Positions 18,398 through 25,942 of a DNA stretch of 64,000 nucleotides are shown in pieces (within the stretch, counting starts at the first letter, position 1; each line of letters opens with the position of its first letter). The notes under the pieces were generated by a model. That model made no database searches, was not told where the DNA came from, and worked only from the letters and a program-made list of their open reading frames with translations. The DNA is taken from the NCBI RefSeq assembly GCF_056746865.1, contig NZ_CM163382.1, one strand, 5' to 3'. A program made the translations under genes and the position numbers.

Positions 18398-19570
<1,173 letters not shown>

Positions 19571-21760
19571 TTAAGCCGTTTTCAGGTCGCCAACCGGACG
19601 GGCTGGCTCAACCGGGGGATAGTACGGTTCGTTATGACGCGCTTTATTACGCAGACCTTCCGGCACTTCGTACAGTGGGCCGAGGTGCTGATATTGCTGT
19701 GCCATATCGAGGTATTTTGCGCTACCGAGGGTGTCCAGCCAGCGGAACGCGCCACCGTGGAACGGAGGGAAACCCAGGCCGTAGACCAGCGCCATATCCG
19801 CTTCTGCCGGAGTGGCGATAATGCCTTCTTCCAGACAGCGCACCACTTCGTTGACCATCGGGATCATCATGCGGGCGATAATCTCTTCTTCGCTGAAATC
19901 GCGCTTCGGCTGGCTCACTTCTGCCAGCAGGTCGTCAACAGCGGCGTCTTCTTCTTTCTTCGGCTTACCTTTGCTGTCTTCTTTATAACGCCAGAAACCG
20001 AGGCCGTTCTTCTGACCAAAGCGGTTGGCATCAAACAGCGCGTCGATGGCATCGCGATAATCTTTCTGCATCCGCTGCGGGAAGCCTGCTGCCATGACAG
20101 CCTGGGCATGATGCGCGGTGTCAATGCCCACAACGTCCAGCAGATATGCCGGACCCATCGGCCAGCCAAACTGTTTTTCCATCACTTTGTCGATCTTGCG
20201 GAAATCCGCGCCGTCGCGCAGCAACTGGCTGAATCCGGCGAAGTAGGGGAACAGTACACGGTTAACGAAGAAGCCGGGGCAGTCGTTGACCACAATCGGC
20301 GTCTTTCCCATCTTGCTCGCCCATGCGACGACTTTCGCGATGGTTTCGTCGGAGCTTTTCTCGCCGCGAATAATTTCTACCAACGGCATCCGGTGCACCG
20401 GGTTAAAGAAGTGCATCCCGCAGAAGTTTTCCGGGCGTTCCAGCGCGTTGGCCAGTTCGCTGATAGGAATGGTTGAAGTGTTAGACGCCAGCACGGTATC
20501 CGGGCGTACTTTTTGTTCGGTTTCTGCCAGTACGGCTTTTTTCACTTTCGGGTTTTCGACAACCGCTTCTACCACAATATCCACGCGGTCAAACCCGGCG
20601 TAGTCGAGCGTTGGGTGGATTGTAGAGATCACGCCAGCCAGTTTCAGACCATCGATCTTGCCGCGCTCAAGCTGCTTGTTCAGCAGTTTCGCGGCTTCGG
20701 TCATGCCGAGGGTTAACGACTTGTCGTTGATATCTTTCATGACAACCGGCACGCCTTTCCACGCAGACTGGTAAGCGATGCCGCCGCCCATAATGCCTGC
20801 GCCCAGCACAGCGGCCTGTTTTGGGGTTTCAACGTCTTTGGTGAGTTTCTTCGCTTTGCCTTTTACATATTGATCGTTAAGGAAAATGCCGACCAGTGCG
20901 CGAGCTTCGTTGGTATGCGCCAGCGGGACAAAACTTTTGTTTTCCAGATTTAAGGCTTCTTCACGACCAAAACGGGCCGCCGCTTCAATGGTTTTTACTG
21001 CGGTGATGGGGGCCGGATAATGTTTCCCCGCCGTTTGTGCGACCATCCCTTTAGCGATGGTGAAACTCATGGTGGCTTCAATCTTGCTCAGTTTTAGCGG
21101 TTCCAGCTTCGGCTGACGTTTCGCTTTCCAGTCGAGGTCGCCGTTAATGGCCTGGCGTAAAATCGCCATCGCCCCTTCAACCAGTTTTTCTGCTTTGACT
21201 ACACCATCCACCAGACCGATTTTCAGCGCCTGATCCGCGCCGACATCTTTACCGGCGGCAATGATTTCCAGCGCACTGTCAGCGCCCAGCATACGTGGCA
21301 TACGTACAGAACCGCCAAAGCCCGGCATGATGCCCAGTTTGGTTTCCGGCAGACCGATGCGCAGATCCGGCGTCGCCAGACGATAATCGGTCGCCAGCAC
21401 GCATTCGCAGCCACCGCCCAGCGCATAGCCGTTGACGGCAGCAATGGTCGGCACCGGCAGATCTTCCAGGCGATTAAACACGCTATTGGCAAAGTGCAGC
21501 CACTGACTTAACTGTTCTTCAGGAACGAGGAACAGAGACAAAAATTCGGTGATATCAGCACCGACGATAAAGGCTGCTTTGTTCGAACGCAGCAGCAGCC
21601 CTTTTAGATCTGATTGCTGTTCCAGCACGCCGATGGCCTCGCCGAGGCTGGCGACGGTGGCAGTGTCGAGTTTATTAACTGAACCTGGGGCATCAAATAC
21701 CAGTTCGGCAATGCCATCTTCCAGCCAGTCAAGGTACAGGGTGTCGCCTTTGTAAAGCAT
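19571..21760 (-). CDS. fadB: Fatty-acid oxidation complex alpha subunit (enoyl-CoA hydratase / 3-hydroxyacyl-CoA dehydrogenase)
   Basis: ORF 19571-21886; true start at ATG 21758-21760 ([20 protein letters not shown]...), 729 aa. Confidence 0.95.
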
Positions 21761-21785
21761 GTCAGTCTCCTGAATCCGCAAGGTG

Positions 21786-21802
21786 ATCTGGTCGTACCAG
21801 AT
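21786..21802. promoter_or_regulatory. FadR operator of the fadBA promoter
   Basis: Perfect palindrome ATCTGGT-CGT-ACCAGAT 26 bp upstream of the fadB start; matches the known FadR site. Confidence 0.8.
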
Positions 21803-21949
21803 GCATCGAAGTGTGTATTTTGTGTTAAAAATATGCAAATAAAATATTAAAGAAATGCCGATCTGATCACGCTCGGCAGAAATCACGCTCTGGATGAACG
21901 ATGTGCTAAGATGCGGAGACTTAAGGTCAAAAAAACAGAAGGGTAAAAA

Positions 21950-23281
21950 ATGGAATCACTGGCCTCACTCTATAAAAATCATATAGCTACCTTACAAGAA
22001 CGGACTCGCGATGCGCTGGCGCGCTTCAAGCTGGATGCGTTACTTATTCACTCCGGCGAACTGTTCAACGTTTTTCTCGACGATCATCCCTATCCGTTTA
22101 AAGTGAATCCGCAATTCAAAGCGTGGGTGCCGGTAACTCAGGTGCCAAACTGCTGGCTGTTGGTGGATGGCGTGAACAAGCCGAAACTGTGGTTTTATCT
22201 GCCGGTTGATTACTGGCACAACGTCGAACCGCTGCCGACCTCCTTCTGGACTGAAGATGTAGAAGTGATCGCGCTGCCGAAAGCCGATGGCATTGGTAGC
22301 CTGCTGCCTGCTGCGCGCGGGAATATCGGTTATATCGGTCCGGTGCCGGAGCGTGCGCTGCAACTGGGTATTGAGGCCAGCAATATCAACCCGAAAGGGG
22401 TGATCGACTACCTGCATTACTACCGCTCCTTCAAAACCGAGTACGAACTGGCCTGTATGCGTGAAGCGCAGAAAATGGCGGTCAACGGTCATCGCGCGGC
22501 AGAAGAAGCGTTCCGTTCTGGCATGAGCGAGTTCGATATCAATATTGCCTATCTGACCGCGACCGGTCATCGTGATACCGACGTACCTTACAGCAACATT
22601 GTGGCGCTTAACGAACACGCTGCGGTGTTGCATTACACCAAACTGGACCACCAGGCACCGGAAGAGATGCGCAGCTTCCTGCTGGATGCCGGGGCCGAAT
22701 ATAACGGCTATGCGGCTGACCTGACCCGTACCTGGTCGGCAAAAAGCGATAACGACTACGCACAGCTGGTGAAAGACGTAAATGATGAACAACTGGCGCT
22801 GATCGCCACCATGAAAGCAGGCGTCAGCTATGTGGATTACCACATCCAGTTCCATCAGCGCATCGCCAAATTGCTGCGTAAACATCAAATCATCACCGAT
22901 ATGAGTGAAGAAGCGATGGTCGAAAACGATCTCACCGGACCGTTTATGCCGCACGGTATCGGTCATCCGCTGGGCCTGCAGGTGCATGACGTAGCTGGCT
23001 TTATGCAAGATGATAGCGGTACGCACCTCGCGGCACCGGCAAAATATCCGTACCTGCGCTGCACCCGTATTCTCCAGCCGGGCATGGTGTTAACCATCGA
23101 ACCGGGTATTTACTTCATTGAATCGCTGCTGGCACCGTGGCGTGAAGGGCAGTTCAGCAAGCACTTCAACTGGCAGAAAATTGAAGCACTGAAACCGTTC
23201 GGCGGCATTCGTATCGAAGACAACGTGGTGATCCACGAAAACAACGTGGAAAACATGACCCGGGATCTGAAACTGGCGTGA
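21950..23281 (+). CDS. pepQ: Xaa-Pro dipeptidase (prolidase)
   Basis: 443-aa M24-family ORF matching PepQ. Confidence 0.95.
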
Positions 23282-25396: not shown

Positions 25397-25942
25397 GTGA
25401 AAACATTAATTCTTTTCTCAACAAGGGACGGACAAACGCGCGAGATTGCCTCCTACCTGGCTTCGGAACTGAAAGAACTGGGGATCCAGGCGGATGTCGC
25501 CAATGTGCACCGCATTGAAGAACCACAGTGGGAAAACTACGACCGTGTGGTCATTGGTGCTTCTATTCGCTATGGTCACTACCACTCTGCGTTCCAGGAG
25601 TTTGTCAAAAAGCATGCGACGCGACTGAATTCGATGCCGAGCGCCTTTTACTCCGTAAACCTGGTGGCGCGTAAACCTGAGAAGCGTACTCCACAGACCA
25701 ACAGCTACGCGCGGAAGTTTCTGATGAGTTCACAATGGCGTCCCGATCGCTGCGCGGTCATTGCCGGGGCGCTGCGTTACCCACGTTATCGCTGGTACGA
25801 CCGTTTTATGATCAAGCTAATTATGAAGATGTCAGGCGGTGAAACGGATACGCGCAAAGAAGTTGTCTATACCGATTGGGAGCAGGTGGCGAATTTCGCC
25901 CGAGAAATCGCCCATTTAACCGACAAACCGACGCTGAAATAA
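25397..25942 (+). CDS. hemG: Protoporphyrinogen IX dehydrogenase (flavodoxin-like)
   Basis: 181-aa ORF with GTG start, [22 protein letters not shown]... Confidence 0.93.

Follow-up and report, generated by a model that had tools for sequence, protein, structure and literature searches.

What is a perfect palindrome doing just upstream of fadB, and is it the element through which the fadBA operon is kept silent? The answer, which we hold to be almost certain, is that it is the FadR operator (OB) of the Escherichia coli fadBA operon, the site at which FadR represses transcription. The sequence identity, genomic context and conservation on which this reading rests were established in the present analysis, while binding, derepression and structure come from the literature on strain K-12. 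On direct reading, positions 21786-21802 of the window (the whole stretch of 64 kb that was analysed) are ATCTGGTCGTACCAGAT on the plus strand, and the fadB-sense reading of the minus strand is ATCTGGTACGACCAGAT. The two 7-bp arms, ATCTGGT and ACCAGAT, are exact reverse complements on either side of a 3-bp spacer that reads CGT on the plus strand, and the perfect 7+3+7 inverted repeat reported in an earlier note on this DNA is thus present. The annotation of 21786..21802 (minus strand) as the operator draws on this reading together with published identity, matrix scoring and conservation.

The A of the fadB ATG is at 21760 (minus strand), and 25 nucleotides separate this codon from the palindrome, whose nearest base is therefore -26, the distance of 26 bp upstream of the fadB start that had been given for it. 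The element is contained in the 189-bp gap (21761-21949) between the divergent fadB and pepQ genes, where the same note had placed it. Its core, CTGGTACGACCAG (21788..21800, minus strand), is the sole exact match in the 64-kb window to the FadR core consensus CTGGTNNGACCWG and holds the recognition triplets of both half-sites, with TGG at operator positions 4-6 and its complement CCA at positions 12-14. In the FadR-DNA structure, the TGG triplet of each half-site makes the base-specific contacts (PMC3592433).

The genes around the palindrome are those of the fad locus. The fadB coding sequence (19571..21760, minus strand, 729 aa), with which the repressed operon begins, was delimited from the open reading frame list and the RefSeq annotation of identical genomes, and its 2190 nt equal the length of K-12 b3846. 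The second gene of the operon, fadA (18398..19561, minus strand, 387 aa, from the open reading frame list), has 1164 nt and agrees in length and position with K-12 fadA b3845. The divergent neighbour of fadB is pepQ (21950-23281, plus strand). Between operator and start codon, a leader corresponding to +18 to +42 (21761..21785, minus strand) carries on direct reading the Shine-Dalgarno sequence AGGAG at 21767-21771, and its stretch CAGGAGAC is at least 95% conserved in an alignment of upstream regions, among the matches listed. A 501-bp stretch around the operator matches numerous complete E. coli chromosomes at 100% identity and was found in 5,425 of 5,426 complete E. coli genomes, in which the features annotated beneath it are fadB and pepQ. 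The gene assignment made in the earlier note is borne out both by the RefSeq annotation of these 100%-identical genomes and by the alignment to K-12, and the gene order in the equivalent region of K-12 MG1655 is fre-fadA-fadB / pepQ-yigZ-trkH. Across the 189-bp intergenic region, only four single-base differences from K-12 were observed and none of them falls in the operator. Two adjoin it upstream, at -3/-2 (GACTC in K-12, GATGC in the window), and the other two precede the -35 hexamer by approximately 5 and 10 bp, which places them at about -41 and -46 relative to the inferred start.

The attribution of the palindrome to FadR stands on identity with a site that has been characterised biochemically. 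The 17-mer is base for base the published E. coli fadB operator, as had been recognised from the sequence. It is contained as an exact string in the EMSA probe fadBA-F (ACTTCGACTCATCTGGTACGACCAGATCACCTTGCGG; PMC4259882), which was shifted by wild-type FadR and not by the W60G mutant (PMC4259882). Extended by its flanking C at either end, it becomes the 19-mer CATCTGGTACGACCAGATC of a FadR-DNA crystal complex (PMC3592433), and the FadR-DNA structure PDB 1H9T has also been cited (PMC9329746). In K-12, deletion of fadR increased expression of a fadBA-lacZ fusion 5-10-fold (PMC3460868), and in another study it raised fadBA-lacZ more than 3-fold (PMC4259882). The K-12 operator OB shares with the window the 17-mer and its flanking Cs, the spacing from the ATG and the sequence of the 25-nt leader, along with the divergent pepQ gene and the -10, -35 and FIS-site sequences. 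It differs in the flank at -3/-2, which is CT in the K-12 probe and TG in this strain. The original DNase I footprint of FadR at the fadB operator was reportedly obtained by DiRusso et al. in 1992, and crystal structures of FadR-DNA complexes are said to have followed from Xu et al. and van Aalten et al. in 2001; PDB 1HW2 is a further entry for a FadR-DNA crystal structure.

When compared with the other FadR sites of E. coli, the fadB operator belongs to the same class and has features of its own. The sites of fadL, fadD, fadE, fadIJ, fadM, fadH, fabA, fabB and iclR are likewise 17 bp long with a CTGGT...ACC core, and those of the fad genes lie, like that of fadB, near the start codon and, according to a review, over or near the transcription start site (PMC9329746). 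Of the 12 E. coli FadR sites compared, that of fadB alone is a perfect 7+7 palindrome: both of its arms are perfect, whereas most of the others have one degenerate half. It also differs from them in its flanks, which are AT...AT and not aa...tt, and at position 8, where it has A in place of C. Accordingly, when set against the fuller 17-bp consensus aaCTGGTCnGACC(T/A)Gtt (PMC9329746), it shows one mismatch in the core, the A for C at position 8, and flanks that are AT/AT and not aa/tt.

The position of the operator relative to the promoter depends on where transcription starts. In 2012, Feng and Cronan assigned the fadBA promoter positions -36 to -18 to TTGCATATTTTTAACACAA (PMC3460868), and transfer of this one paper's numbering to the window would place the start (+1) at 21802 on the minus strand, the first A of the operator. 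The operator would then span +1 to +17 of fadBA. A review describes the FadR site of fadBA as overlapping the transcription start (PMC9329746). By the same numbering (PMC3460868), the -10 hexamer is the weak CACACT at -13 to -8 (21810..21815, minus strand) and the -35 hexamer is TTGCAT at -36 to -31 (21833..21838, minus strand). Among the matches listed, CACACT was found at the -10 offset in 70 of 83 Enterobacterales loci and TTGCAT or TTGCAA at the -35 offset in 73 of 83; in the upstream alignment of listed matches, the -35 hexamer falls within a block that is at least 95% conserved. A consensus sigma-70 scan of 21700-22000 retrieved no promoter, CACACT being too weak for such a scan, and this fits a weak promoter, since its -10 is far from consensus and its expression is CRP-dependent (PMC3460868). 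The earlier suggestion that the site marks the fadBA promoter holds in so far as the operator adjoins the downstream edge of the promoter; the operator is not the promoter itself, the hexamers of which are located just upstream.

Other regulators act on the same promoter or have been proposed for it. The published putative FIS site TTGCATATTTTTAACACAA (21820..21838, minus strand; quoted in PMC3460868) is unchanged in the window. ArcA is reported to repress fadBA directly (PMC9329746, PMC3798270), and ArcA boxes are direct repeats spaced 11 bp apart (PMC3798270). A direct repeat of this kind, TGTGTA-ttttg-TGTTAA with 11 bp from centre to centre, was read directly at 21812..21828 on the plus strand, where it overlaps the -10 region, the spacer and the published putative FIS site. 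Its hexamers coincide with blocks that are at least 95% conserved among the matches listed, and the five bases between them are less so. The repeat at 21812-21828 looks like the ArcA box that would be expected for fadBA, an assignment of bases that we infer from the sequence.

A CRP-like element, CGTGATCAGATCGGCA, was observed further upstream (21856..21871, minus strand), with its centre at -61.5 relative to the inferred start of fadBA. Among the matches listed, its GTGATC is present in all 83 of the 83 Enterobacterales fadB upstream regions, and the centre of the 16-mer is exactly at -61.5 in 72 of the 83 loci. The left half reads TGTGA in 43 and CGTGA in 40 of these 83 listed loci; the right half (xxGCA or xxTCA) is a weak one, and in the E. 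coli copy only 6 of the 10 core positions agree. A centre at -61.5 is the classic position of a class I activator. Published work makes the fadBA operon dependent on CRP but reports no CRP site for it (PMC3460868; PMC9329746), and the GTGATC element is a candidate for the missing one. It could instead serve pepQ or another factor.

Two further elements were noticed in the intergenic region. The sequence TGcTAAGAT at 21904-21912 (plus strand), approximately 38 nt upstream of the pepQ ATG, resembles an extended -10 for pepQ, and in the Enterobacterales alignment, at whose far end it lies, its bases are conserved among the matches listed; the consensus promoter scan of 21700-22000 gave no -35 partner for it. 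In addition, the scan reported a terminator-like stem-loop, CGTTCATCCAGAGCG followed by TGATTTCTGC, upstream of the fadBA promoter at 21886-21900; it is oriented as fadB is, on the minus strand. Its stem is weak, with 5 pairs, and one such structure in the intergenic region compares with a mean of 0.3 in shuffled sequences; it is probably non-functional.

Within E. coli, the operator hardly varies. A 34-nt segment from -1 to +33 was found exactly in 5,414 of 5,426 complete genomes and with one mismatch in one more, and the 17-mer itself is therefore exact in at least 5,414 of the 5,426. With an identity of at least 95%, a 70-nt query covering the leader, the operator and the -10 region was recovered from 5,422 of the 5,426 genomes, and the matches resolved into two main haplotypes, one fully identical to the query (100%) and one at 97.1%. 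Each of the two is carried by roughly half of the complete E. coli genomes, and the adjoining operator is invariant. The polymorphic positions are -3/-2 (within 21803-21805), where K-12 has CT, the window TG and strain 65COLEC TT.

Conservation was then followed across species with loci chosen, in one genome per GTDB species, by a degenerate pattern for a FadB coding motif, the operator not being used in the selection. The motif scan yielded at least 120 loci, and the fadB ATG was at the expected offset in 119 of those listed. Among the matches listed, 87 loci had a FadB start reading ML and at least 60 nt of upstream sequence, and CTGGT-N3-ACCAG was present 24-28 nt before the ATG in 86 of them; the sole exception among these listed loci (L064) belongs to Psychrosphaera, of the Alteromonadales. 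The core was thus found at this distance in 86 of 86 listed Enterobacterales species, from genera that include Citrobacter, Enterobacter, Klebsiella, Salmonella, Kluyvera, Pantoea, Erwinia, Yersinia, Rahnella, Hafnia and Cedecea. No exact core was found in the 31 loci from Shewanella, Aeromonas, Idiomarina and other Alteromonadales among the matches listed, a few of which have a weaker FadR-like site elsewhere. In parallel, a published knockout primer for Salmonella Typhimurium contains the same operator at the same 25-nt distance, followed by a diverged leader.

The constraint lies on the arms and not on the spacer. Of the 86 listed species, 82 retain both arms, ATCTGGT and ACCAGAT, in full, and the spacer of the same 86 listed loci reads ATG in 43, ACG in 29, CAT in 11 and AAG in 3. 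Its distribution follows clades: E. coli, Klebsiella and Kluyvera have ACG, Citrobacter, Enterobacter and Pantoea share ATG, and Yersinia, Rahnella and Hafnia have CAT. As CAT and ATG are reverse complements of each other, the side on which the better half-site (GGTC/GACC) lies with respect to fadB changes between their groups. The three loci with an AAG spacer also have TA as right flank and come from two isolates labelled Enterobacter and one Pluralibacter metagenome-assembled genome. In an alignment of 82 distinct upstream sequences, among the matches listed, mean column identity was 0.94 for the operator, 0.84 for the leader, 0.70 for the region from -150 to -43 and 0.87 for the first 30 coding bases. 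The arms are under purifying selection.

Could this selection act on RNA and not, or not only, on DNA? If the start of transcription coincides with operator position 1, as the numbering in PMC3460868 suggests, the palindrome would be transcribed and could act mainly or additionally as a 5'-terminal hairpin of the fadBA mRNA, with 7 bp and a 3-nt loop, which we regard as unlikely. The minimum-free-energy fold of the 45-nt leader holds exactly this stem-loop. Among the matches listed, 82 of the 86 species keep AT...AT without change at the outer positions 1-2 and 16-17, positions at which a wide choice of bases is accepted in the other FadR sites of E. coli. 5'-terminal stem-loops are able to stabilise E. 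coli mRNAs against decay that depends on the 5' end. That the operator forms the first 17 nt of the fadBA transcript, and that its hairpin protects the message once FadR has gone, is accordingly conceivable and has little probability in our judgement; were it true, the hairpin could explain the invariant outer AT...AT, which is not conserved in the other FadR sites. However, the fold of the leader is ordinary for its composition (z = -1.04, with 32 of 200 shuffles folding as well), and a scan of 21650-22050 against Rfam gave no family match. No compensatory change was seen in the 86 loci among the matches listed; on the contrary, three listed species have TA instead of AT in the right arm with an unchanged left arm, which reduces the stem to 5 bp. 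In addition, the fadBA start is derived from published numbering, and binding of FadR at the DNA level already accounts for the conservation.

A second alternative keeps the palindrome as a DNA site and assigns it, instead of or besides FadR, to another GntR regulator of the FadR subfamily such as PdhR. The PdhR box AATTGGTnnnACCAATT is, like the fadB operator, an inverted repeat of 17-bp geometry with a GGT-N3-ACC core, and by our own count the palindrome matches 10 of the 14 specified positions of the box. This is as good as several sites given as PdhR targets in the available portions of the gSELEX table, and those portions of the study also report binding of PdhR to the promoters of fadE and fadIJ and, weakly, to those of fadM, fadL and fadH (PMC7660256). 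Nevertheless, the box differs from the operator at positions 2-3 and 15-16, which are TC/GA in the former and AT/AT in the latter. The same portions of the gSELEX table hold no entry for fadB, and pepQ is absent from the main text of that paper (PMC7660256). Direct FadR binding, a co-crystal and fadR-dependent derepression have all been documented for the exact sequence (PMC4259882, PMC3592433, PMC3460868), and a role of PdhR at this site is very improbable.

It remains to be asked what the palindrome is worth by itself. Perfect 7+3+7 inverted repeats are common: the window contains 8 of them, as compared with 3.9 expected naively and 4.0 +/- 1.8 in shuffled sequences, and the shape by itself is without significance and is not evidence of function. 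The content of the sequence is significant, and only the exact core match is informative. By our own arithmetic, approximately 0.015 exact matches to CTGGTNNGACCWG would be expected by chance per 64 kb on both strands; when one mismatch is allowed, the core consensus is not significant, at least two matches being found in 39 of 100 shuffles. That a chance palindrome without function is present here has a practically negligible probability and is refuted by conservation and by the published binding data, since the element has the exact sequence of an operator that was characterised by experiment, has no second core-consensus match beside it in the window, is invariant in at least 5,414 E. coli genomes and, among the matches listed, is present in 86 of 86 Enterobacterales while the flanking intergenic DNA diverges.

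Scoring with a position weight matrix for FadR, the check proposed in the earlier note, gave an outcome that depends on the training set. A 6-site matrix, trained on a tiny set from which fadB was left out (two sites each of fadL and fadD, and those of fabA and fabB; sites from PMC4259882), assigned the operator 8.9 bits, less than the 14.7 that shuffled windows reached at best on average. This matrix was discarded as undertrained, two of its sites being near-duplicates and most having degenerate right halves. A symmetrised 11-site matrix, also without fadB, combined the six published sites with five that we picked as the best site in each of five known FadR-regulated K-12 promoters: AAGTGGTCAGACCTCCT for fadE, ATCAGGTCAGACCACTT for fadI, AAGAGGTCATACCAGTT for fadM, AACTCATCCGACCACAT for fadH and AACTCATCGGATCAGTT for iclR. 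With this matrix, in which 5 of the 11 training sites are thus our own choice, the operator scored 15.3 bits and ranked first of 63,984 positions, the next best reaching 11.7. Its score falls within the range of the training sites (6.8-20.6 bits). The same 15.3 bits were attained somewhere in 22 of 200 dinucleotide-shuffled windows (11%), so that significance across the window is modest. The matrix evidence is supportive, but alone it would not establish the operator; the case is carried by the location in a 189-bp region upstream of a fad gene and by exact identity to a characterised site. Small matrices built from other sites under-score the fadB site because of its AT...AT flanks, its A at position 8 and the degenerate halves found elsewhere, and they can in this way wrongly reject the strongest FadR site.

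Another FadR-like sequence, CGCTGGTACGACCGTTT, was observed at 25790-25806 (plus strand), inside the open reading frame 25397-25942 downstream of trkH. It has the 11-nt core CTGGTACGACC in common with the fadB operator, scores about 11-12.6 bits, which is in the range of chance, and is probably coincidental.

Taken as the FadR operator, the palindrome suggests a simple mode of control. A dimer of FadR, a GntR-family winged-helix repressor, would bind both half-sites, reading TGG in each arm. With the operator at about +1 to +17, directly downstream of the weak -10, bound FadR would block RNA polymerase and keep fadBA off. Such steric exclusion of the polymerase is suggested by an operator that would begin at +1 just below the -10 hexamer. 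Long-chain acyl-CoA would then release FadR from DNA and allow fadB and fadA to be transcribed, and this transcription would in addition be subject to repression by ArcA and to dependence on CRP. Both the binding of FadR and its release by long-chain acyl-CoA have been documented for the identical K-12 sequence (PMC4259882, PMC3460868); fadR itself is not encoded in the 64-kb window.

The identification of the operator, which none of the observations contradicts, is thus correct, already known and, as a finding, ordinary. The fadB operator is a textbook site, for which a footprint has been reported and which has been gel-shifted, co-crystallised and reused in synthetic fatty-acid biosensors. 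A side observation is the fixed GTGATC at -61.5, which could be the CRP site reported as missing for the CRP-dependent fadBA promoter. The operator itself is carried unchanged in the window, where it anchors the annotation of the fadBA promoter, and its comparison among species documents how strictly the arms, and not the spacer, are conserved across Enterobacterales.
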